A stretch of DNA of 34,331 nucleotides from Fibrobacteria bacterium (GTDB lineage: Bacteria; Fibrobacterota; Fibrobacteria; UBA11236), in contig JBGTHM010000105.1 of assembly GCA_041746255.1 (NCBI GenBank), forward strand, positions 1-34,331, read 5' to 3'. Of the stretch, positions 6,794 through 19,453 are shown piece by piece (the stretch's first letter is position 1; every line of letters starts with the position of its first letter). The notes below the pieces were generated by a model. That model made no database searches and was not told the DNA's origin. It worked only from the letters and a program-made list of their open reading frames with translations. The position numbers were made by a program, and so were the translations under genes.

Positions 6794-8485
6794 ATGTTTA
6801 AAGGTGCAAGTTTAACATTCAAGCTATATAGCGGCTTCGCTGCCGTTTTGATAATCGCAGGTTGTCTCGGAGGGTACGCCTATAATCAACTTGTTAAAAT
6901 CGATTCCGTTTCCACTATTATTGTAGAAGACAACCTTCCGGGGTTGTACCTAGCTGAGGAAATCCAGAAATTGGCTATAGGAACTCTTTTGACCACCTGG
7001 AGGCATATAAATGCGCAGAGTAAAGAAGAAATGTCCGCACTCGAGCAAAATATGGCCAAAGACAGAGAGTCCATTGATCAAATGCTAAAAGCTTATGAAG
7101 GCACCATGACCGATCCTAAAGATAAAGAGCTATTCGCGAAAATAGCGCCCGCTCGGGCTCGGTTTTTGGAAGCGCTTACCCAATCCGTGCTGCCATTAAG
7201 CCAGGCTGGAAAGGGGGATGAGGCTACCGTAGTAGTACAGGCCAAGCTAATGCCTCTTTATGATATTTATCTTGGGGCTACTCAAGATATCGTGATATTT
7301 AATAAAGAATTCGGTGAAGCTTCAGGTAAAAAAATAACGGATTTAGTGAATGCCGCCGAATTGGGAATCCTGGTGGGCCTCGCCCTGGCTTTGGCCGTGG
7401 GAGCATCCATCGGGTTTTTCCTAAGTCGCTCCATATCCGCTGCATTGAACCGGGTCATCGATTCACTGACATCGGGAAGCGAACAGGTATCCGCAGCCTC
7501 CAGCCAGGTCAGCGAGTCAAGCCAACAAATGGCGGAGGGTGCCAGCGAACAAGCTTCTTCCTTGGAGGAGACTTCGGCCTCGCTGGAAGAAATGTCTTCC
7601 ATGACCAAGCAGAACAGCGAAAACGCACGTCAGGCAAATATCATGGCCACGGATACGCGTGGGGCGGTGGAGAAGAGCAGGGAAGCCATGACCCGTATGA
7701 GCGACGCCATTGGGCGTATCAAGAGTTCTTCGGATCAAACTGCTAAGATCATTAAAACCATCGATGAAATCGCTTTCCAAACCAATTTACTAGCCTTGAA
7801 CGCCGCCGTGGAAGCCGCCCGCGCAGGGGATGCCGGCAAAGGCTTTGCAGTAGTCGCGGAAGAAGTGCGCAACTTGGCCCAACGCAGCGCCGAAGCCGCT
7901 AAATCCACGGCTTCGCTTATCGAAGAATCGCAACAAAATGCCAATGACGGGGTTTCCGTCTCCTCCGAGGTGGCGGGAATCCTGTCACAAATCGTGGAAA
8001 GCGTGCATAAGCTCTCCCAGTTAATAGGAGAAGTCTCGGCCGCCAGCGACGAACAGTCAAAGGGCATAGAGCAAATCGGAACTGCGGTTACGGAAATGGA
8101 CAAGCTCACGCAATCCAACGCTTCTAACGCCGAAGAGTCGGCTTCGGCCAGCGAGGAGTTGTTTGCCCAGGCCAAGGAGCTCGGGGAAATGGTGAATACC
8201 CTGGTGGGTATTGTTAAAGGAGAAGGAGCCGTAAACCGGTCCCATTCCTTTTCAGGAGCAGGTGCCGGGCATGGAGCTCCCAGACGGAAAGTCTCCCTGA
8301 ATACCCCTGCGAAAACGGGGAATAAGCAGGTCTCCCGTTCCAACTCAAAAAATAGTTCCCAACCCGTTCACGACTGGAAGCCCTCGGGAAACGGCCACTC
8401 CAAAAATCTCGTGGCAACTTCAGTGCGCTCAGCTTCCCCCAACGACGTGATTCCTCTCGACGATGACGATTTGAAAAATTTCTGA
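6794..8485 (+). CDS. Methyl-accepting chemotaxis protein (2 TM, four-helix-bundle-type periplasmic sensor)
   Basis: Two TM segments; signalling hairpin [51 protein letters not shown]. Confidence 0.95.
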
Positions 8486-8527
8486 TTCGTCTAACGCAAC
8501 CGAAAAGGAAGCAATCGAGGAGTAGTC

Positions 8528-9331
8528 ATGGAAATGGGTTCCCGAGTCTTCCAAGACTTCCGTTCCCTGGTGTATGCCAGGAGCGGAATCGCCTTGGGTG
8601 AAGGCAAAGAGGCTCTGGTCAGCGCGCGCATCGGCAAACGGCTCCGCCATTTGGGACTGGTCGATTTCGACGCGTATTTGGACTGGGTCAAGGGACGTGA
8701 CGGCGAAGAGGAGATGGTGCATTTGCTCGACGCCATTTCCACCAATGTCACCAGCTTTTTCAGGGAGCCTGCGCATTTCGAATTTGTTGCGGAATGTATG
8801 CGAAAGTGGATGGCGACCGGCCAACAACGCTTTCGCTTCTGGTCAGCCGCGTCTTCCACCGGCGAGGAGCCCTATACGCTCGCCATGACCTTGCGCGAGT
8901 CCAAGGAAAACGGCGAGGATATTCGCATATTGGCTACCGACATTTCGACACGGGTGCTGGAGGCCGCCAAACAAGGACGCTACGCGGCGGCAAAATTGCA
9001 ATCGCTTCCGGACGGCTTTGCCAAACGGTATTTCACCAACTTGCACCCGAAAGAGGGGTCAGAGTTCGAAATCAAGGAAGAATTGAAACGCATGGTTCTC
9101 TTCAAGCGGCTCAACCTCGCTTTCCCTCCTTTCCCTATGGCGGGGTCGATGGACATGATCCTCTGCCGCAATGTCATGATTTATTTCGACAATCCCGTGC
9201 GTAAGCGATTATTGGAAGAATTCTACCGCCTATTGAAGCCGGGTGGATACCTCCTGGTCGGGCATTCAGAAAGTCTGACGGGTCTAGCCGGTAAGTTCAA
9301 AACTATTCGGCCCTCCATTTATCTCAAGTAG
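8528..9331 (+). CDS. cheR: Chemoreceptor methyltransferase CheR
   Basis: STNVTSFFRE, WSAASSTGEEPY, ILATDIS, ILCRNVMIYFD, GHSESL. Confidence 0.95.
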   Translation: MEMGSRVFQDFRSLVYARSGIALGEGKEALVSARIGKRLRHLGLVDFDAYLDWVKGRDGEEEMVHLLDAISTNVTSFFREPAHFEFVAECMRKWMATGQQRFRFWSAASSTGEEPYTLAMTLRESKENGEDIRILATDISTRVLEAAKQGRYAAAKLQSLPDGFAKRYFTNLHPKEGSEFEIKEELKRMVLFKRLNLAFPPFPMAGSMDMILCRNVMIYFDNPVRKRLLEEFYRLLKPGGYLLVGHSESLTGLAGKFKTIRPSIYLK

Positions 9332-9336
9332 GGTGC

Positions 9337-9813
9337 ATGAATATCGTAATCGGAATTTCTGAAATGAGGGTTTCGCGCAATCCCGAAGAGGTGTTGGTCA
9401 CTTTCGCATTGGGATCGTGCGTGGGCCTGACGCTTTTCGATCCTTCTACAGGAATTGGGGGGCTCATCCACGCCATGCTCCCGCTTAGTAAAATCGATCC
9501 GGTCAAGGCGGCCAATAACCCTTACATGTTCGTAGATACCGGAGTACCTGCTCTTATGCAGACGCTGTTTGATCTTGGGGCCCAGAAAAAGCACTTGATA
9601 GCCAAGGTCGCGGGAGCATCCACTATCATGGATGACAAAGGAATATTCAACATCGGCGAAAGGAACCATACGGTATTGCGTAAGGTTTTATGGAAAAATA
9701 ATATTCTCATCGCCGGAGAAGACGTAGGGGGCAACTCGCCACGCACGGTTTACCTGCACATGAATACGGGGAAAACCATTTTGAAAATGGCGGGACAGGA
9801 AAGGGAGCTTTAA
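9337..9813 (+). CDS. cheD: Chemoreceptor glutamine deamidase CheD
   Basis: LGSCVG catalytic Cys, GGLIHAMLP, IGERN, EDVGG...R. Confidence 0.92.
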   Translation: MNIVIGISEMRVSRNPEEVLVTFALGSCVGLTLFDPSTGIGGLIHAMLPLSKIDPVKAANNPYMFVDTGVPALMQTLFDLGAQKKHLIAKVAGASTIMDDKGIFNIGERNHTVLRKVLWKNNILIAGEDVGGNSPRTVYLHMNTGKTILKMAGQEREL

Positions 9814-11797: not shown

Positions 11798-12310
11798 TCA
11801 CTTCTCTTCCGCAGCTTTTCTCCCCCGGCTGACGCCTTTTTCCAAAGCGGATTTTCGGGCTCTGCGAGCCGCAGCCGGAGGCATGGGCAGCATTTCCGTT
11901 GTTCCTTCGCGAATTTGCGCCAAGGTAGTTTTCTCGGCCCATTCCTGGAATTCCTGATTGATGGCGCTCCAACTGTCGTGCATGGGACAGGGATTGGCCG
12001 AATTGCACTTACCCCACCCGAATACGCATTGATTCGGATGGGCGTCATAACCCACCACCGCCAGGATATTCATATAACTGATACGTTTGGCAGGCTTAGC
12101 CAATGCGAATCCACCACCATGTCCCTTGGCGGAGGTAACCAGACCAGCTGAAACCATTTGCCGCATGATTTTCAGCAGGTAATGTACAGGAACGAAGGTT
12201 GCGTCCGAGAGTTCATGTGCGGTAACCGCCTTGCCGGCAGGGAGCAATGCAAGCCAACTCATGGCTCGCAGGGCATATTCGGCGGTATGAGACAAATTGA
12301 TGGAAATCAT
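11798..12310 (-). CDS. Rrf2-family transcriptional regulator with putative Fe-S ligands
   Basis: AEYALRA, winged-helix SAKGHGGGFAL, C-x6-C-x5-C-x2-H (CVFGWGKCNSANPCPMH); divergent from the heme-copper operon. Confidence 0.9.
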   Translation of the reverse strand: MISINLSHTAEYALRAMSWLALLPAGKAVTAHELSDATFVPVHYLLKIMRQMVSAGLVTSAKGHGGGFALAKPAKRISYMNILAVVGYDAHPNQCVFGWGKCNSANPCPMHDSWSAINQEFQEWAEKTTLAQIREGTTEMLPMPPAAARRARKSALEKGVSRGRKAAEEK

Positions 12311-12402: not shown

Positions 12403-12431
12403 TTGAATTAATTCGTATGAGCAGTTAAAAT
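12403..12431 (+). promoter_or_regulatory. Putative sigma70 promoter of the eNOR operon
   Basis: TTGAAT (12403-12408), 17-nt spacer, TAAAAT (12426-12431). Confidence 0.65.
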
Positions 12432-12462
12432 AGATATTATTATCTATGGATATTTTTATCTA
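12431..12462. promoter_or_regulatory. Two abutting 16-bp palindromic operator boxes (putative Rrf2 sites)
   Basis: TAGATA-ttat-TATCTA (12431-12446) and TGGATA-tttt-TATCTA (12447-12462), directly following the -10 element. Confidence 0.7.
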
Positions 12463-12522
12463 CTGTATCCCATCTCGGATGGCGTCGGTGGAAAGAAGAA
12501 ACGATATGGCCAGGATAGCAAT

Positions 12523-14025
12523 ATGAAAACCGCAGGCACCGCCCTAGGGCCCATAATCGTTCCCGGACCAACCCGCTCGGAAACGCCTTATCGGCATTCC
12601 CGAACCCAGGTTCAACCGCTGGATAAAAGTTGGATTCAAGGGGTGGCATTGTCCAAAAATTGGTGGGCGCTCTCGATTCTTTCCATGGCTATCGCGGGTT
12701 TTTATGCCCTGGCCCTGGTGCTGGCCCGCATGCCGGGATTGAGTACCCTTATTACCGACCCCCTCTTCTTTAAGCGCTGCCTAGTCGTGCATGTTAACCT
12801 GGCGCTGGGACTTTGGCTGCTCGCATTCCTGGCCGGAATGTCGGAATGGACACATAGGGGAAGCAAAGGCCAATCCAGCAGACGGCTGGGACTGTTTTCC
12901 GCCTCGCTGGGATTAGCCTGCATCATGGCGGCGGCTTTCATTCCGGGAGTCAATCCCGTCCTTTCCAATTATATCCCGGTATTGGATCACCCCCTGTTTT
13001 TCGGCGGATTGTTCCTGGTGGCTGTAGGTCTATTCGGCGCACTTTCCAGAAAATCCTGGAGTCGGGAAACCTGGAAAGCCAATCCCCTCTCCCCGTTCGC
13101 GCCCCTTGCCGCTGCGCGCCCGCTATTGGCAGTGGCCGGAATCGCCTTTGGTTTCTCCCTAATTACTTTGGCCATCGCCTTCTTGGTTGTGAACCGTTCG
13201 CTGGCATCCCAGCCTTATTATGAATTTCTTTTCTGGGGTCCCGGACATTTGCTGCAAGTCACCCACTCGGCTGGAATGATCGCAGCCTGGATTCTGATTA
13301 CGGGCGAGCTGCTGAAAAAATCACCCGTCTCCTTCAAGGTATCCCGAGCCCTGGCGATAATTCTAATCGCTCCCTGGTTGATATCCCCATTTTTCTCCTG
13401 GCAAGGCCCCGCTTCGATTTGGTTTTTATCGGGGTTTACTCAATTGATGCGGTATGCCATTTTCCCCGTTACTCTCGTTTTCATGGTCATGTGTTTGCGC
13501 AGTCTGCTCGTCTTGCGAAGTGACTCGCAGCCGCCGATGACATTCGCTCGCAAGGCGTTATTGAGCGGTTTGCTCTCCAGCTTCGCCCTTACCGCCACCG
13601 GATTCATACTGGGCGCCATGATACGCGGATCCAACACCATGGTTCCCGCACACTACCATGCCGCAGTAGGAGGGGTTACCGTCGCCTATATGACGGCCGC
13701 CTTTTTACTCGCGCAAAAATTCGATTTCCGCAAAGTATCGAGACGCGCGGGAAAATTGTTATCCCGGCAACCTCTCATCTATGGCGTGGGCCAATTGGCG
13801 TTCGCCTTGGGATTCGCCTTCGCCGGTTACCATGGCGCCGCCCGGAAAAGTTACGGACAGGAACAACAAATCAATTCCTTCTCGGAATCCTTCGGATTGG
13901 CCGTCATGGGAGGCGGGGGCCTGCTGGCCATTGTAGGAGGACTCGCCTTCATGGTGCTTTGTTACCGCCTTTATAAAAACCGTACCGACGCGAACCCGAA
14001 CCTGGAGGATATATGGAAAGTGTGA
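12523..14025 (+). CDS. Degenerate heme-copper oxidase subunit I-like membrane protein (function unknown)
   Basis: About 12 hydrophobic helices; VVHVNL (helix II His), LFWGPGHLLQ (helix VI), VPAHYH (helix X HxH), GAARK (cf. GMPRR); no helix-VII HH pair found. Confidence 0.75.
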   Translation: MKTAGTALGPIIVPGPTRSETPYRHSRTQVQPLDKSWIQGVALSKNWWALSILSMAIAGFYALALVLARMPGLSTLITDPLFFKRCLVVHVNLALGLWLLAFLAGMSEWTHRGSKGQSSRRLGLFSASLGLACIMAAAFIPGVNPVLSNYIPVLDHPLFFGGLFLVAVGLFGALSRKSWSRETWKANPLSPFAPLAAARPLLAVAGIAFGFSLITLAIAFLVVNRSLASQPYYEFLFWGPGHLLQVTHSAGMIAAWILITGELLKKSPVSFKVSRALAIILIAPWLISPFFSWQGPASIWFLSGFTQLMRYAIFPVTLVFMVMCLRSLLVLRSDSQPPMTFARKALLSGLLSSFALTATGFILGAMIRGSNTMVPAHYHAAVGGVTVAYMTAAFLLAQKFDFRKVSRRAGKLLSRQPLIYGVGQLAFALGFAFAGYHGAARKSYGQEQQINSFSESFGLAVMGGGGLLAIVGGLAFMVLCYRLYKNRTDANPNLEDIWKV

Positions 14026-14183
14026 AGGAGCCTACGTTGGAGACAACGGATAAACGCATGTTGCAAAGGTTGATGGACAACCCTTGGATCCTGTTGATTC
14101 TAGGATTTCTTATCCCTACCATTTCTTACACCATTTGGGGCTGGGTCGAGTTGTTGCGGGTTCCCGTAGCACCGCTTCCCTAG
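14013..14183 (+). CDS. Small single-TM protein, probable accessory subunit of the heme-copper enzyme
   Basis: Below the ORF-track cutoff. GGAGG RBS (14004-14008), ATG 14013, MESVKEPTLETTDKRMLQRLMDNPWILLILGFLIPTISYTIWGWVELLRVPVAPLP*; the stop overlaps the RBS of subunit II. Confidence 0.8.
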   Translation: MESVKEPTLETTDKRMLQRLMDNPWILLILGFLIPTISYTIWGWVELLRVPVAPLP

Positions 14184-14195
14184 GAGGAAAAAATC

Positions 14196-14720
14196 ATGAG
14201 CATTCAAAGTCCCGCCGCAGGCTGGTTCAAAGCGCCGACAGGTTCGGAAAGGTTATGGATAGGCATCGCCCTGGCCTGGTGCCTGGTCATGTTTTTCATG
14301 ATGCCGTTCTGGCATTTCAAGGGAAAGCAGAACAGCACGGGCGAAGCCTATAAGGTGGCGCCGGCGAAATTCGCGGAGCGGACCTTCGCCTTCGCGGAAT
14401 CCAACAAAGTAGGCGAAGAAAACGGCATACCCATCGTCGAGCCCTTTCCCGGCGGCGACGCCTATTTGCTGGGAAGGATGTGGAGCTGGTATCCCATTCT
14501 CAAGCTGAAAAAGGATCAAACCTATCGAGTGCATATCTCCTCGACGGATTTGCAGCACGGTTTCTCCTTATTGCCCATGAACATGAATTTTCAAATCCTG
14601 CCGGGATACGATCACGTTCTCACCTTGACACCCACCCAAACCGGAACCTTTTCCATCGTCTGCAATGAGTTTTGCGGCATCGGACATCATTTGATGACCG
14701 GTAAAATCATTGTTGAATAG
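14196..14720 (+). CDS. Heme-copper oxidoreductase subunit II (CuA), B-family/eNOR type
   Basis: Single TM; CuA ligands DLQHGF...CNEFCGIGHHLM. Confidence 0.93.
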   Translation: MSIQSPAAGWFKAPTGSERLWIGIALAWCLVMFFMMPFWHFKGKQNSTGEAYKVAPAKFAERTFAFAESNKVGEENGIPIVEPFPGGDAYLLGRMWSWYPILKLKKDQTYRVHISSTDLQHGFSLLPMNMNFQILPGYDHVLTLTPTQTGTFSIVCNEFCGIGHHLMTGKIIVE

Positions 14721-14731
14721 GAGACATAGCC

Positions 14732-16447
14732 ATGGTAGTCCCAAGCCCCGAAAAACAAAGAATCTGCAGCACCTATTCCCTGCCCATCTGCCTCAACGCG
14801 CAATTCTTCATCAAGTTGAATGCGGTTCTGGCGGTGGTCTCCATCCTGATCGGCGCCGTAGGAGGTCTGCTCGTGGGCCTGACGCGCTGGTCGGCTGTCC
14901 ACCTGCTCGACCCGACCTGGTATTACCGCCTGCTTACCCTGCACGGCCTCAATATGCTCATCTACTGGATCATATTCATGGAGATAGCCATTCTCTATTT
15001 CGCCGGCACCACCCTGCTTAAGACTAAATTGTTCTCCACCAAACTGGCCTGGACGTCCTTCGTCCTCATGGTCGCCGGAGCGGTGCTGACCAATTACGTA
15101 ATCCTGCAAGGCAAGGCCGACGTTTTATTGACTTCCTACGTTCCGCTCAAGGCCACGCCCAACTTCTACCTGGGTATCATACTTTTCGCGGTCGGGGCGC
15201 TGGTGGGAGTCATCAATTTTTTCGGATGCGTCTACCAGGCGCGTAAGGCCAAAAGTTACGGGGAAACCATGCCCCTGGTGGCTTTCGGAGCCGTAGCCGC
15301 CGCCATCATCGCGGTGCTGGCCCTGGTACACGGCGCGGTTACCCTGGTTCCCACCTGGCTCTGGTCGCTGGGGCTCATCGACTACATCGATCCCATGTGG
15401 TATCGCGTCACCTGGTGGGCGCTCGGCCACACTTCACAACAAATCAACGTTTGCGCCATGGTTTCCGTCTGGTATCTCATGGCCACGCTCACCACGGGCG
15501 CCCGTCCGCTCAACGAAGCCGTCAGCCGCGGAGCCTTCGTTCTCTACATCCTCTTCATCAATCTCGCCTCGGCGCATCACCTGTTGGTCGATCCCGGCGT
15601 GGGCGCGGGATGGAAGATCTGGAACACCTCCTACGCCATGTATCTGGCCGTGCTGGCCTCCCTGATCCACGGGTTCACCATTCCCGCCTCGGTGGAATCC
15701 GCCATGCGGGCGCGCGGTTTAGGCAAGGGCCTCTTCAGCTGGCTCACAGCGGCCCCTTGGCGCGATCCCGGGTTTTCCGCCTTCTTCCTATCGCTGGTGA
15801 TTTTCGGATTCATAGGAGGAATCACAGGCGTTACCCTGGGAACCCAGCAAATCAATATTCTCGCCCACAACACCCTGCGCATACCTGGGCATTTCCACGC
15901 CACGGTTGCGGGAGGGACATCGCTGGCCTTCATGGGGCTTACCTATTACGTGGTACCCTTAATCTTCCAACGGGATTTCCGTTTCCGACTATTGGCGCGT
16001 ATCCAACCCTATATATTCGCCACCGGCATCGTCGTCATGTCGATGGGCATGTCTTTCGCAGGGTCATACGGCGTACCTCGCCGCCATTGGGACGCTGAAT
16101 TCACCGGCGCCGCGATCAAGGCCGGATTCGACTCCGGTGCGCATTTAATGCTCACGGTCTTGGGCCTGGGCGCGACGCTCACGTTCATCGGCGTCATCAC
16201 CTATGTGTTCTTGACGGTGACTGCGGTATTTTTCGGCCCTTCCAATAAGGGACGTCCCATGCTGAGCTGGCAAGGGAAAACCGAAGATGCGGAATTGAAG
16301 TCCATACTGTCCGGCACATTCGATTCCAAGCGTTTCAAACACCGGGTACCCGGCACCGTCACCTTGGTAGTGGTGCTGCTGATATCCTTCATCGTCTATT
16401 ACTTCGCGAATTGGCTGGCGCTTACCGACGTCTGGCCCGTCCGCTAA
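14732..16447 (+). CDS. Heme-copper superfamily subunit I, eNOR-type nitric oxide reductase
   Basis: All six His ligands present (LTLHG; WALGH; SAHH; GHFH), but helix VI reads GHTSQQIN rather than GHPxVY, i.e. Gln at the cross-linked Tyr position, the eNOR signature. Confidence 0.85.
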   Translation: MVVPSPEKQRICSTYSLPICLNAQFFIKLNAVLAVVSILIGAVGGLLVGLTRWSAVHLLDPTWYYRLLTLHGLNMLIYWIIFMEIAILYFAGTTLLKTKLFSTKLAWTSFVLMVAGAVLTNYVILQGKADVLLTSYVPLKATPNFYLGIILFAVGALVGVINFFGCVYQARKAKSYGETMPLVAFGAVAAAIIAVLALVHGAVTLVPTWLWSLGLIDYIDPMWYRVTWWALGHTSQQINVCAMVSVWYLMATLTTGARPLNEAVSRGAFVLYILFINLASAHHLLVDPGVGAGWKIWNTSYAMYLAVLASLIHGFTIPASVESAMRARGLGKGLFSWLTAAPWRDPGFSAFFLSLVIFGFIGGITGVTLGTQQINILAHNTLRIPGHFHATVAGGTSLAFMGLTYYVVPLIFQRDFRFRLLARIQPYIFATGIVVMSMGMSFAGSYGVPRRHWDAEFTGAAIKAGFDSGAHLMLTVLGLGATLTFIGVITYVFLTVTAVFFGPSNKGRPMLSWQGKTEDAELKSILSGTFDSKRFKHRVPGTVTLVVVLLISFIVYYFANWLALTDVWPVR

Positions 16448-16457
16448 GGAGGTTGTC

Positions 16458-17435
16458 GTGAAAATCGTTTATCCAAAGCCTATTCCGCTCCGCATACCCG
16501 TTGGGTTTCAGTCCCACATGGCGGCGTTTATCTTGAGTCTGCTGGTGGTATTCGATGGCTTCCTCGTGCTGACAATGGTAATGGAGCCGGCGGAACCCGC
16601 TTTGTCGGGGTTCCTCCGCGACTTCCGCGTCTGGTGCCTGAGAGCCGACCCGGCAACGGGACGGTTCGACTGGTTCTATCCGGCCATCATCCTGGGAGAA
16701 TCGCTGCTATTAGGCGGTATTATCCTGGCTATCTGGGGTAACAGCCTGAAGTTCAGCTTCGGCGGAAGAATGCGTTCCTTACTACCCCATGTGGTACTAT
16801 CCTTCATGGTGGTTTCGGGAAGCGCTTACGCTTCGCTTTTCGTCTTCGCTGAAGACATGCAAACGGGCTCTTTGGATTTCCCAGCCCAGGAACTCCGCAC
16901 TTCGATTCCGGCGCCGGAATTTTCCTTGATAGACCAGAACGGCGAAGCGGTTACGGATAAGGATCTAGCCGGAGGCGTAACCGTACTGACCTCCTTCTAT
17001 GCCCATTGCGTACATACCTGCCCCCTCATCTTCACGCAAATACGCAAAGTAATGGATAAGCTGGATCCCGCCTCAACCGACAAACTTCGCATCGTGGCGG
17101 TGAGCATGGATCCGGTCCGGGATACCCCTGAGATATTACGAATGGCCGCCGATTTGCATAAAATGGACGCGCCGTTGTATCGACTCGCCACCGGAGATCC
17201 CGAAGCCGTGGAAATTTTGCTCGACCGCATGGGCATTCAACGGGAAAGAAATTTGGAAACCGACGATATCGCGCATAACAATCTCTTTCTGCTGGTGGAT
17301 GGAAACGGGCGCATCGCCTACCGTTTTTCTCTGGGAGAATTGCAAGAAGACTGGATGGTAAGCGGGTTGCAAACCCTCCTGAAGGAACTGCCCCAGGGCG
17401 ATCGGCGCGCGGAGGTGGTGGTTGCAGTGCCATGA
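16458..17435 (+). CDS. Sco/SenC-family copper chaperone with N-terminal multi-TM extension
   Basis: APEFSLIDQNG, FYAHCVHTCP (CxxxC), SMDPVRDT, IAHNN. Confidence 0.88.
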   Translation: MKIVYPKPIPLRIPVGFQSHMAAFILSLLVVFDGFLVLTMVMEPAEPALSGFLRDFRVWCLRADPATGRFDWFYPAIILGESLLLGGIILAIWGNSLKFSFGGRMRSLLPHVVLSFMVVSGSAYASLFVFAEDMQTGSLDFPAQELRTSIPAPEFSLIDQNGEAVTDKDLAGGVTVLTSFYAHCVHTCPLIFTQIRKVMDKLDPASTDKLRIVAVSMDPVRDTPEILRMAADLHKMDAPLYRLATGDPEAVEILLDRMGIQRERNLETDDIAHNNLFLLVDGNGRIAYRFSLGELQEDWMVSGLQTLLKELPQGDRRAEVVVAVP

Positions 17436-19453
17436 ACCGCTCGACTCCGCATGCCCTCTACCTCCGGCTTAGTGGGATCGCCGATAAACGGCTGGGAGTC
17501 CAAAACAATTTCTTATCCCAAACCGGCGCATTAGCCAATTTTTTCTTTCTCATCGCTCTGGTAACCGGAATCCTCCTGCTGTTCTGGTATCGCCCCAGCC
17601 TGCACGCCGCCCATGCTTCCATGCTGGCTATGGAAGCCAATCGGTATCTTGCCGGATTCCTGCGTACGCTCCATCGCTACAGTTCGGACGCATGCATGCT
17701 TTTCGTTATGCTACACGCGCTGGAAGCTTTGATAGCCGGACATTTCGACAAGCCCCGCTGGTTGGCATGGGGAACCGGATTCCTGCTCACCATCGCCCTC
17801 TGGTTCGAAGGTTGGCTCGGCTATTGGCTGGTATGGGACGAACCGGCGCGCCTGGTCGCCGTGGTGTCGGCCCAAGTGTTGGACTATCTCCCCATTTTCG
17901 CCGATCCCATCTCCCGCGCCTTTCTGGTACCCGACACCCTTAATTCGTTGTTTTTTTTCGTGGTGTTCTTCATACACATGCTTATTCCGCTGGCCTTCGC
18001 CATCGGCCTATGGTTACATATCTCCAAATTCAACCGCGCGGCTTTTCTTCCCGGAAAATCGCTCTCGCTGGCCTCGCTGGCGGCAGTGTCGGCGCTGTCC
18101 TTGATATTACCCGCAAGGGCCGGAGCGGCTGCGGATTTACTGAACATGGCGCCGGTTCTCTCCTTGGATTTGTTTTACCTGCTGCCGTTACGGTTTTCCC
18201 AAATCATGAATCCGTGGGTCTGGGCGGTTTTTGCGACTGTCCTTATCCTGCTCATGGCTTTACCGTTCATGCGACGTCAAGCCGGCAAACGTCCACACGT
18301 GACCCCCGAGCGTTGCAACTCCTGCACCCAATGTTATGAAGACTGTCCGTATAACGCCATCACCATGACCACGGACGAGCAGGGCCGGGTCAAGGCCCTC
18401 ATCAGCGAGCCCGACTGCGTGAGTTGCGGGGCGTGCGTGGGATCGTGCAATTCCAAGGCCATTGATTTTCCGGGTTACTCGGCTGACCTGGCCCAAAAGC
18501 GCATCCGGGAATGGTATGCCGCAAGTTCTCCGGCGTTACCTTTGGCTTTCCTATGCGACAAAGCTTTCGCAGGCAACCTGGAGGTGGACGCCGCGACGGG
18601 AATTTCGCCGCAACTGCGCGGTTATAAGGTGGTAACCATGCCTTGCACGAGTTGGCTCAATCCCCTCATGTTGGAATTCGCGGGCAAGTCGGGCGCCCCG
18701 GGAATTTTGGTGGGTGGCTGCGGTACGCTTAATGCCGGCAATAGGCTGGGAACTTTTTTAACCGGGGAAAGAATCGCCGGAAACCGTGAACCCAAACTAC
18801 GCCGGGAGAAGCTGGGGTCAGCGCCATTGCGCTATTTGCATTTTTCTCCGCTGGAAGGGCAGGATTTTATCAACCAGGCGAACCGCTTCCATTCCGATCT
18901 CGGCGCCTCACCCGTATCGGCGGTTACGCGGGAAGTGAAGTCCGGATATCGTCAATACGCAGGTACCGTTTTTACGGGGTTGCTGATATTCCTTTTTCTG
19001 TTGGCGGGGATTTATCTGGGCGAGAGCCGGGAATTCATGGCAGGGGATCCGCAAGCAACGGAGTTGGTCATCTCCCTGAAACACGGGGGCCTCTTCGTCG
19101 ATTCCAAGGTAACGCCCGAGGAAAAATCCCAACAGGAGGAGCTCTTGCCGCATATGCGCGGCGCGGCCTCCGGTGGCAAGCGGGAGCGCATGCCAGTGCG
19201 CATGCAAGTGTTGGTGGATGGAGAAACGAAGCTGGAGAAATCTTACCGCGCAGGCGGATTGTTCCGGGATGGCGAGAGCGTGGCCATGGAAAGGCTGGCT
19301 TTGTTGCCTGGAAAATATCGGGTGGAAGTGCGCATCGCGGATGGAACCAATGCGAATACCTGGCGATTCACCCAAGACCGTACGGTCGAATTCACAGGTG
19401 GCCGTCGCAAGGTGGTGTTTTTCGAGAGCGAGGGAGGTTTCCGATGGTATTGA
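17432..19453 (+). CDS. Fusion of cytochrome b (b6-like), 2x[4Fe-4S] ferredoxin, MvhD/FlpD-like domain and C-terminal TM plus soluble domain
   Basis: Four heme-b His (RTLHRY, MLHAL, FIHML, WLHIS), GWLGYWLVWD; CNSCTQCYEDCP and CVSCGACVGSC; LAFLC, MPCTSW, LVGGC. Confidence 0.8.
   Translation: MNRSTPHALYLRLSGIADKRLGVQNNFLSQTGALANFFFLIALVTGILLLFWYRPSLHAAHASMLAMEANRYLAGFLRTLHRYSSDACMLFVMLHALEALIAGHFDKPRWLAWGTGFLLTIALWFEGWLGYWLVWDEPARLVAVVSAQVLDYLPIFADPISRAFLVPDTLNSLFFFVVFFIHMLIPLAFAIGLWLHISKFNRAAFLPGKSLSLASLAAVSALSLILPARAGAAADLLNMAPVLSLDLFYLLPLRFSQIMNPWVWAVFATVLILLMALPFMRRQAGKRPHVTPERCNSCTQCYEDCPYNAITMTTDEQGRVKALISEPDCVSCGACVGSCNSKAIDFPGYSADLAQKRIREWYAASSPALPLAFLCDKAFAGNLEVDAATGISPQLRGYKVVTMPCTSWLNPLMLEFAGKSGAPGILVGGCGTLNAGNRLGTFLTGERIAGNREPKLRREKLGSAPLRYLHFSPLEGQDFINQANRFHSDLGASPVSAVTREVKSGYRQYAGTVFTGLLIFLFLLAGIYLGESREFMAGDPQATELVISLKHGGLFVDSKVTPEEKSQQEELLPHMRGAASGGKRERMPVRMQVLVDGETKLEKSYRAGGLFRDGESVAMERLALLPGKYRVEVRIADGTNANTWRFTQDRTVEFTGGRRKVVFFESEGGFRWY

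Follow-up and report, generated by a model that had tools for sequence, protein, structure and literature searches.

A 34,331-nucleotide stretch of DNA from a Fibrobacteria bacterium (contig JBGTHM010000105.1 of assembly GCA_041746255.1; hereafter the window) carries a gene cluster for the nitric oxide (NO) reductase eNOR. At the head of this cluster lies a gene for a second protein related to subunit I of the haem-copper oxidases (HCOs), to which we give the working name X (positions 12523-14025, forward strand). Judged from its alignments, X is an HCO subunit-I fold unable to build a normal binuclear centre and, because the haem ligands are conserved, it would be expected to bind two haems. 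Relatives of X form a large family on which purifying selection acts and which branches as a single group beside eNOR subunit I. X and eNOR each occur without the other; the family is not bound to eNOR, and its steadiest gene partners family-wide are ctaB, DUF420/CtaM, and HCO structural and assembly genes. We tentatively favour the view that X does not itself reduce NO or O2 and serves HCOs as an accessory factor, in haem-cofactor handling or in maturation.

The open frame encodes 500 amino acids and was examined with Pfam, BLASTP, AlphaFold2, Foldseek, and profile alignments. The COX1 model (PF00115) matched residues 47-450 at 39.9 bits, barely above its cut-off of 34.8, and was the only match in the Pfam scan, which returned no PF02628 (CtaA/Cox15), Surf1, or NnrS; the NCBIfam models did not match X. 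BLASTP aligned X with the adjoining eNOR subunit I over its whole length at 24% identity (E 7e-11). The AlphaFold2 model (predicted local distance difference test [pLDDT] 87.4, predicted template-modelling score 0.89) contains 12 transmembrane (TM) helices, and gave 87 Foldseek matches at E ≤ 0.001, of which those listed are HCO subunit I chains. The best was a ba3 oxidase (E 1e-7, TM score 0.66-0.72, root-mean-square deviation about 5.5 Å). Searched against Protein Data Bank (PDB) sequences with phmmer, the single X sequence found only chance matches to ribosomal L18, and a family profile was required: a 59-member X profile retrieved subunit I of the Thermus thermophilus ba3 oxidase alone (18 matches, best E 3.1e-7). 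When 79 X sequences were compared with 64 eNOR subunit I sequences by hhalign, the two families aligned with a probability of 100% (E 7e-43, 460 columns). These comparisons, together with the ligand mapping below, carry out the COX1 model and structure checks proposed in a preliminary description of the gene, and its expectation that annotation pipelines would mislabel X as oxidase subunit I proved right. The ESM Atlas held only automatically named COX1/cbb3 clusters and gave no further lead.

Ligand positions were mapped on two profile alignments (the family against ba3, and hhalign against eNOR subunit I), and so refer to alignments and not to model coordinates:

H90: aligns with the helix-II haem histidine in both profile alignments
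W238xxGH242: aligns with the helix-VI W...H motif, H242 falling at the first CuB/FeB ligand position
Gap and invariant P289: align with the helix-VII His-His pair
H377 and H379: fall on the two haem histidines of helix X, that of the high-spin and that of the low-spin haem, respectively
R441-K442 (in 'GAARK'): aligns with the haem propionate-binding Arg-Arg

Thus H242 alone is kept of the CuB/FeB histidine triad, the helix-VII pair being gone, while the low-spin bis-His pair (H90, H379) and the proximal H377 are kept in 59-60 of 60 distant representatives. Both alignments uphold the preliminary description on this point: it had reported the histidines of helices II, VI, and X, the missing helix-VII pair, and the GAARK variant, and had read X as a repurposed oxidase fold with no normal binuclear centre. 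At His+4, the position of the cross-link Tyr or Gln, X has V, F, or L; the Gln at His+3 (Q245) is retained. The hhalign comparison found no conserved equivalents in X of the K-channel-like residues Y248, K295, T299, S300, Y301, and E322 of eNOR subunit I, and X has a deletion or hydrophobic residues at the positions of ba3 S309, T312, and T315 (numbered from the profile alignment), which we take to be K-path residues. The invariant R225 of eNOR subunit I is replaced by an invariant E234 in X, and I312 by an invariant M309; together with Q424 and Q448, these are the X-specific invariant residues.

The nearest family to X is subunit I of eNOR, a B-family-derived NO reductase; it has the same fold, and against it the X profile scores about 120-134 bits, compared with about 30 for ba3. 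Common to the two are the haem ligands, the His of helix VI, the R-R/K loop, and the first of the two Gln residues in the QQ motif. They differ in that X has a gap and Pro for the His-His pair, a hydrophobic residue for the second Gln, and E234 for R225, and has lost the K-channel-like residues; it is also about 70 amino acids shorter, evolves faster, and is found without eNOR or a CuA subunit II. Among solved structures, T. thermophilus ba3 subunit I (3s8f, 1xme, 1ehk) is the best match both in structure and in PDB sequence (profile E 3e-7), and shares with X a His following the YxPL loop (H156 in X). Identity to ba3 is, however, only 16-17%, and X has neither its CuB His pair nor its cross-link Tyr nor its K-path Ser/Thr residues.

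Relatives of X are numerous and widely spread. A word-indexed search returned 728 proteins at E ≤ 0.001 among 7,998 scored candidates, the nearest non-self relatives being just 42-45% identical, and an exhaustive search of 50%-identity representatives returned 1,101 at E ≤ 0.001, 812 at 1e-10, and 349 at 1e-30. In a species-genome collection, 404 of 412 pattern matches encode an X relative; carriers include Balneolaceae, Myxococcota, Verrucomicrobiota/Opitutaceae, Planctomycetota, Calditrichota, Spirochaetia, and Methylomirabilota, and the cultured Fodinibius halophilus and Pelagicoccus sp. are represented among the loci. More than 571 further relatives lie on metagenome contigs, as found by a scan with 19 distant members. 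About 60 positions are invariant among 79 X sequences, across phyla at about 40% identity. A core signature consists of H90, E234, W238, H242, Q245, M309, H377-Y-H379, and R441-K442. It is found intact in 77 operon copies; among 60 distant representatives, its individual positions are conserved in 54-60; and seven copies outside eNOR clusters and three fusion proteins have it with no more than one conservative substitution. The periplasmic pair D155/H156 is patchy (23 and 28 of the 60 distant representatives, respectively), and the family has no invariant Cys and no Met- or His-rich motif. No homologue was found in a search for longer forms (876-2500 amino acids), and a literature search found no description of the family.

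In a quick maximum-likelihood tree, X is monophyletic (Shimodaira-Hasegawa-like approximate likelihood ratio test [SH-aLRT] 100) on a long stem and groups with both tiers of eNOR subunit I that are described below (SH-aLRT 98), apart from Tyr-bearing B-like and A-type subunits; long branches are present, and the three-way order among X and the two eNOR tiers is unresolved. Branches within X are longer than those of eNOR subunit I. At the same loci, X is about 36-43% identical to the window copy. The corresponding figures are about 59-71% (subunit I) and 59-78% (subunit II), and about 28-47% for SCO1, cytochrome b/FeS, and CtaB, so X diverges like the accessory genes and not like the catalytic core. 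Within the phylum of the window, X occurs in 2 of 296 genomes, both of the window's own genus, and the nearest relatives of the window copy belong to other phyla. This restriction to one genus suggests that the X-eNOR cluster reached the lineage horizontally.

The preliminary description had X leading the eNOR operon, and the gene order of the window agrees (X, small TM open reading frame [ORF], CuA subunit II, subunit I, SCO1, cytochrome b/FeS, CtaB). Apart from X, the features of the cluster are:

11798-12310, reverse strand: Rrf2-family regulator, divergent from X, with a C95-x6-C102-x5-C108 motif
12403-12431: promoter-like site between the Rrf2 gene and X
12426-12444 and 12449-12467: AT-rich inverted repeats overlapping the promoter-like site (ATAGATA-TTAT-TATCTAT, and a second GATA...TATC)
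14013-14183 (56 amino acids) or 14058-14183 (41 amino acids), forward strand: small single-TM ORF, ending 12 nucleotides ahead of subunit II
14196-14720, forward strand: eNOR subunit II, a CuA cupredoxin with the full CuA motif (H121, C156, E158, C160, H164, M167)
14732-16447, forward strand: eNOR catalytic subunit I, 571 amino acids (COX1 224 bits; H233-T-S-Q-Q237, A-H282-H283, H387-F-H389)
16458-17435, forward strand: SCO1/SenC copper chaperone, 325 amino acids, with the SCO domain at residues 153-285
17432-19453, forward strand: fusion of an N-terminal cytochrome b, a 2x[4Fe-4S] ferredoxin, and an MvhD/FlpD-like domain, 673 amino acids
19444-20301, forward strand: CtaB, haem O synthase (UbiA family)

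A Gln in place of the cross-link Tyr at His+4 defines eNOR, according to PMC8756737, and because Q237 occupies this position the 571-amino-acid subunit I of the window is an eNOR. A sNOR-like label for the cassette was replaced by eNOR on the Gln-for-Tyr criterion. The Rrf2 protein was not assigned as NsrR, as its score against the NsrR model fell under the cut-off. In the 212-nucleotide spacer between the Rrf2 gene and X, the inverted repeats may represent a candidate operator. The SCO1/SenC protein carries an N-terminal extension of about 150 amino acids ahead of its SCO domain. The cytochrome b/FeS fusion is also kept in eNOR clusters that lack X; at some metagenome loci, a cytochrome b/FeS gene lies directly upstream of X. 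Among public sequencing runs, the window stretch occurs only in DNA runs from one hot-spring metagenome study, and no RNA runs holding it are listed.

Read from the ATG at 14013, the small ORF overlaps the last 13 nucleotides of X. It belongs to a family of about 48 amino acids with the motif MDNPWLLL...SYTxWGW, which we found in 67 of 76 intergenic regions between X and subunit II, in all nine X-less eNOR loci examined, and in none of five orphan X loci. Because it is present in X-less eNOR loci and absent at orphan X, the small ORF belongs to eNOR and not to X. The Pfam scan gave no match to it, and a scan for sigma-70 promoters and terminators in the stretch from X to subunit II found nothing above shuffled sequences. 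Subunit IIa of the B-type oxidases has the same gene position (PMC3128077), and we predict that the small ORF is a third, small eNOR subunit located like subunit IIa. The terms "subunit IIa" and "small subunit" do not occur in either version of the eNOR paper.

The surroundings of the closer relatives of X were surveyed by tblastn with the window proteins in the best 80 of the 404 genome loci, a procedure that may miss divergent genes. Counts cover only loci with enough flanking DNA, and proportions apply to this best-scoring subset:

Subunit II after X: 71 of 73 loci
Subunit I: 65 of 68
SCO1: 58 of 61
Cytochrome b/FeS: 52 of 55
Divergent upstream Rrf2: 32 of 75
ctaB in the locus: 25 of 52

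No ctaA was found within these 80 loci.

X and eNOR are also found apart. The preliminary description had proposed co-occurrence with eNOR as a check, and in 301 genomes of the class containing Fodinibius the outcome was unfavourable to a fixed pairing: X is present in 13 genomes, eNOR subunit I in 24, and both in seven, and 6 of the 13 X-bearing genomes have no eNOR-like match at E ≤ 1e-60. The eNOR subunit I sequences of this sample fall into two tiers, 15 at 63-68% identity and nine at 43-44%; the checked loci of both carry the QQ motif. Five X-less clusters whose subunit I is 63-67% identical were read at the locus and comprise Rrf2, the small ORF, II, I, SCO1, and cytochrome b/FeS, the first two being immediate neighbours; the tier-2 loci (43-44%) are likewise without X. 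X is therefore dispensable for closely related eNOR clusters. In the quick tree, the stand-alone copies of X form one clade beside the Balneolaceae operon copies. Five stand-alone loci were probed for a subunit II gene, and none was nearby. The copies outside eNOR clusters that were read have diverse neighbours:

L099, stand-alone X: divergent Rrf2, a HemN-like gene, and CtaA
L100, stand-alone X: no informative neighbour
L101, stand-alone X (8162-9559): cytochrome P450 gene (6997-8148) ending 14 nucleotides upstream, in a Bacteroidota-class genome
L102, stand-alone X: a CMD-family gene and DUF2249
L103, stand-alone X: Rrf2 and a CopD-like gene 3 kb off
L017, stand-alone X: convergent P-type ATPase and Nramp transporter
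L006 (Calditrichota), caa3 cluster headed by X: X-SCO1-COX1 (A-type)-COX3-COX2/cytochrome c-CtaB

The more distant relatives place X among the genes of other oxidases. We took the best 80 of the more than 571 metagenome loci (28-34% identical to X), and the proportions below are those of this subset. In 45 of the 80 loci, the gene immediately ahead of X is DUF420 (CtaM), and ctaB lies directly downstream on the same strand in 32 of the 65 loci with at least 1 kb of downstream DNA. Thirty loci extend at least 4 kb on both sides; 23 of these contain ctaB, 23 an A-type COX1, two ctaA, and four eNOR genes, so that 28 have at least one of the four. Two gene strings were confirmed with Pfam, CtaA-DUF420-X-orf149-CtaB-COX3-SCO1-COX2-COX1 in L118 (5549-13815) and DUF420-X-CtaB, divergent from COX2-COX1, in L123 (6469-9408). 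In L118, X is followed by a 149-amino-acid ORF that Pfam does not recognise and that weakly resembles the eNOR subunit II cupredoxin (35% identity, tblastn). According to PMC9145763, PMC8239418, and PMC13344008, CtaM is required for active aa3/caa3 oxidases and not for haem A synthesis or insertion, and PMC9145763 and PMC13344008 report a recent proposal that it acts in copper export. Taken family-wide, this neighbourhood points to oxidase biogenesis, and the ctaB link together with the kept haem pockets suggests haem.

Natural fusions and co-folding add to the link with CtaB. One contig encodes an X-CtaB fusion of 748 amino acids (P0233); X is also fused to a cytochrome b (P0251, 761 amino acids, two contigs) and to a TPR domain (X-TPR, P0229, two contigs). 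Residues 30-492 of X were co-folded with the CtaB of the window, each protein with its own alignment, and scored 0.53 (runs 0.53, 0.55, and 0.48), the best of three controls scoring 0.00, with a partner pLDDT of 77 or more and 87% or more of contacts common to the runs. The pass mark is reached by 116 of 157 solved complexes and by 2 of 215 mismatched pairs, counts that are rough owing to the alignments used. Among passes scoring 0.60 or less are only 18 of the 157 solved complexes, plus both passing mismatches, and such a low-scoring pass is wrong in the majority of cases unless there was prior reason to expect the pair. The modelled pairing of X with CtaB gives weak support, a small addition to the evidence of adjacency and fusion. 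We know of no solved complex between an HCO and CtaB.

A central claim of the preliminary description was that the operon has ctaB and no recognisable ctaA, from which it proposed X as a candidate for converting haem O to haem A. The gene content holds within the window. The genome, however, encodes a canonical CtaA on another contig (G000:C49:12001-12849, 102.9 bits), directly after DUF420 (CtaM; the two together span C49:11443-12849) and with an A-type COX1 nearby (C49:23993-25324). CtaA was found in 47 of 50 searched X-bearing genomes, and in L118 and L099 it shares a gene string with X, so X accompanies CtaA and does not replace it; the step from absent ctaA to conversion by X falls away. 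In three genomes (G005, G013, and G045) no CtaA was found; these are metagenome-assembled genomes of unstated completeness and provide no evidence that X stands in for CtaA. Surf1 was found in 4 of 51 X-bearing genomes, and an anticorrelation between Surf1 and X proved uninformative, as Surf1 is over the cut-off in none of the 301 genomes of the sampled class, with or without X. What can be kept of the maturase idea is its general form, since maturation or haem handling fits a gene context of ctaB, DUF420/CtaM, ctaA, SCO1, and HCO genes. Purified eNOR contains haem As in both sites, many eNOR operons encode a CtaA homologue, and CtaA requires O2, according to PMC11214002 (Murali et al. 2024); a 2026 preprint asks how haem A arises under anoxia.

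In the mechanism that we envisage for a haem-handling factor, X would take haem made by CtaB (and CtaA), and would hold it or pass it to nascent subunit I, here that of the adjacent eNOR, with the Rrf2 regulator switching X on jointly with eNOR. A fuller version, which we consider possible and rather doubtful, is that haem O from CtaB is held in the two pockets, or is oxidised there to A-type haem with the electrons leaving via cytochrome b/FeS, and is then handed to the eNOR or aa3 subunit I. Several points weigh against a handling role. A chaperone would have no need of a complete low-spin/high-spin haem pair, of His and Gln on the distal side, or of a Glu and a Met that never vary; conservation to this degree suits an enzyme or electron carrier equally well or better. 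The cytochrome b-X fusion P0251 and the upstream cytochrome b/FeS genes point to electron transfer into X. CtaM, the commonest distant neighbour, is reported to be dispensable for haem A synthesis and insertion, with a suggested role in copper handling (PMC9145763 and PMC13344008), so the neighbourhood supports "oxidase biogenesis" more firmly than "haem". Moreover, the long loci L178, L196, and L100 contain none of the partner genes searched for, and the fusions are rare, with one or two contigs each.

An alternative is that X acts on its own, as a membrane protein with two haems that carries out redox chemistry or binds a ligand. Its site would be haem-only (proximal H377; distal H242, Q245, and E234), would receive electrons from quinol via cytochrome b-type partners or from CuA, and would serve in NO or O2 scavenging, in sensing, or in a reduction protonated from the periplasm. 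We think this unlikely, though in its favour are the strict conservation of the haem sites, the distal His-Gln, and E234, M309, Q424, and Q448, the cytochrome b-X fusion and the cytochrome b/FeS genes adjoining X at several loci, and the six stand-alone copies in genomes where no eNOR was found. Rrf2 stands beside X in 32 of 75 loci, and among five scanned stand-alone neighbourhoods L099 has an adjacent divergent Rrf2 and L101 a P450 gene directly upstream. The commonest partners, however, are ctaB, DUF420, SCO1, ctaA, and A-type oxidase genes and not those of NO metabolism; no proton pathway was identified in X, the K-channel residues being gone; X evolves several times faster than the catalytic subunit; and the Rrf2 protein of the window lies below the NsrR cut-off. 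A permanent, non-catalytic pseudo-subunit of eNOR, docking to II or I for stability or supercomplex formation, would fit the fixed order X-small ORF-II-I (71 of 73 loci), the overlap in the window between the stop of X and a possible start of the small ORF, and the retention in X of the R-K loop, a loop turned towards the CuA subunit in HCOs. Such a subunit is improbable given that only 7 of 24 eNOR genomes have X, that five X-less clusters were verified at the locus and the tier-2 loci also lack X, that 6 of 13 X genomes in the sampled class have no eNOR, and that a distant clade sits with A-type oxidases; the partner subunit offered by the preliminary description, if taken as obligate for eNOR, is weakened by the same X-less clusters (63-67%) and by the occurrence of X without eNOR.

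Two further functions would keep X within cofactor biogenesis. Delivery or templating of CuB/FeB, or copper handling with DUF420/CtaM and SCO1, is suggested by the DUF420 gene directly upstream in 45 of 80 distant loci, by SCO1 in the same clusters, by the one metal ligand kept (H242) with the X-specific invariant M309, and by the convergent P-type ATPase and Nramp transporter at L017; for CtaM itself, a part in assembling CuB or in exporting copper has been proposed (PMC9145763 and PMC13344008). We regard this as quite improbable, since the invariant features of X are haem ligands, no invariant Cys or Met/His-rich motif is present, and D155/H156 are found in only 23 and 28 of 60 distant representatives. 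The second function, in which X would turn haem O into haem A or As, perhaps independently of O2 and with electrons passing to cytochrome b/FeS, draws on a different likeness. CtaA combines a cofactor haem with a substrate haem, and an electron-transfer haem in X beside a second His-ligated pocket with an invariant Glu would be formally CtaA-like. The adjacency to ctaB, the X-CtaB fusion, and the absence of ctaA from 80 eNOR-type X loci are in keeping with conversion, as is the use of haem As by eNOR when CtaA requires O2 (PMC11214002). O2-independent conversion by X is conceivable on this analogy; as an account of the family it is very improbable, as this genome has CtaA, as do 47 of 50 X genomes, X stands beside CtaA in L118 and L099, A-type aerobic oxidase genes are near X in 23 of 30 long distant loci, eNOR clusters exist without X, and X has no sequence relation to CtaA. 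That X is a decaying duplicate without function might be read from its lost catalytic ligands and fast evolution, but the open frame, about 60 invariant positions across phyla, 349 representatives at E ≤ 1e-30, and conserved synteny refute decay for practical purposes.

As a haem-handling factor, X would differ in kind from the biogenesis factors already known. It shares gene strings with CtaM (DUF420), CtaA, and CtaB (DUF420-X-CtaB; CtaA-DUF420-X-...-CtaB), which would fit a common role in HCO maturation; in contrast to CtaM, Surf1, CtaA, and CtaB, to which it has no sequence or fold relation, X duplicates the client protein. A parallel may be drawn with NifEN, a paralogue of nitrogenase NifDK that acts as a cofactor scaffold. 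The proteins and cofactors are unrelated, and the likeness lies in the logic: X too would be a duplicate of a catalytic subunit that keeps the cofactor pockets without catalysis, and may serve as a scaffold.

For bacteria, the loading of haem A or O and of the second metal into HCO subunit I is understood only in part; many lineages have no Surf1, and the role of CtaM is unsettled. Because X keeps the haem pockets of its client and its gene lies between those of CtaM and CtaB or heads an eNOR cluster, the family offers a concrete, testable candidate for a step that is still missing from biogenesis. A scaffold derived from a catalytic duplicate, if true, would be a principle so far undescribed in oxidase biogenesis. 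In the meantime, X genes labelled as oxidase subunit I would inflate the counts of terminal oxidases and NO reductases in genomes and metagenomes.

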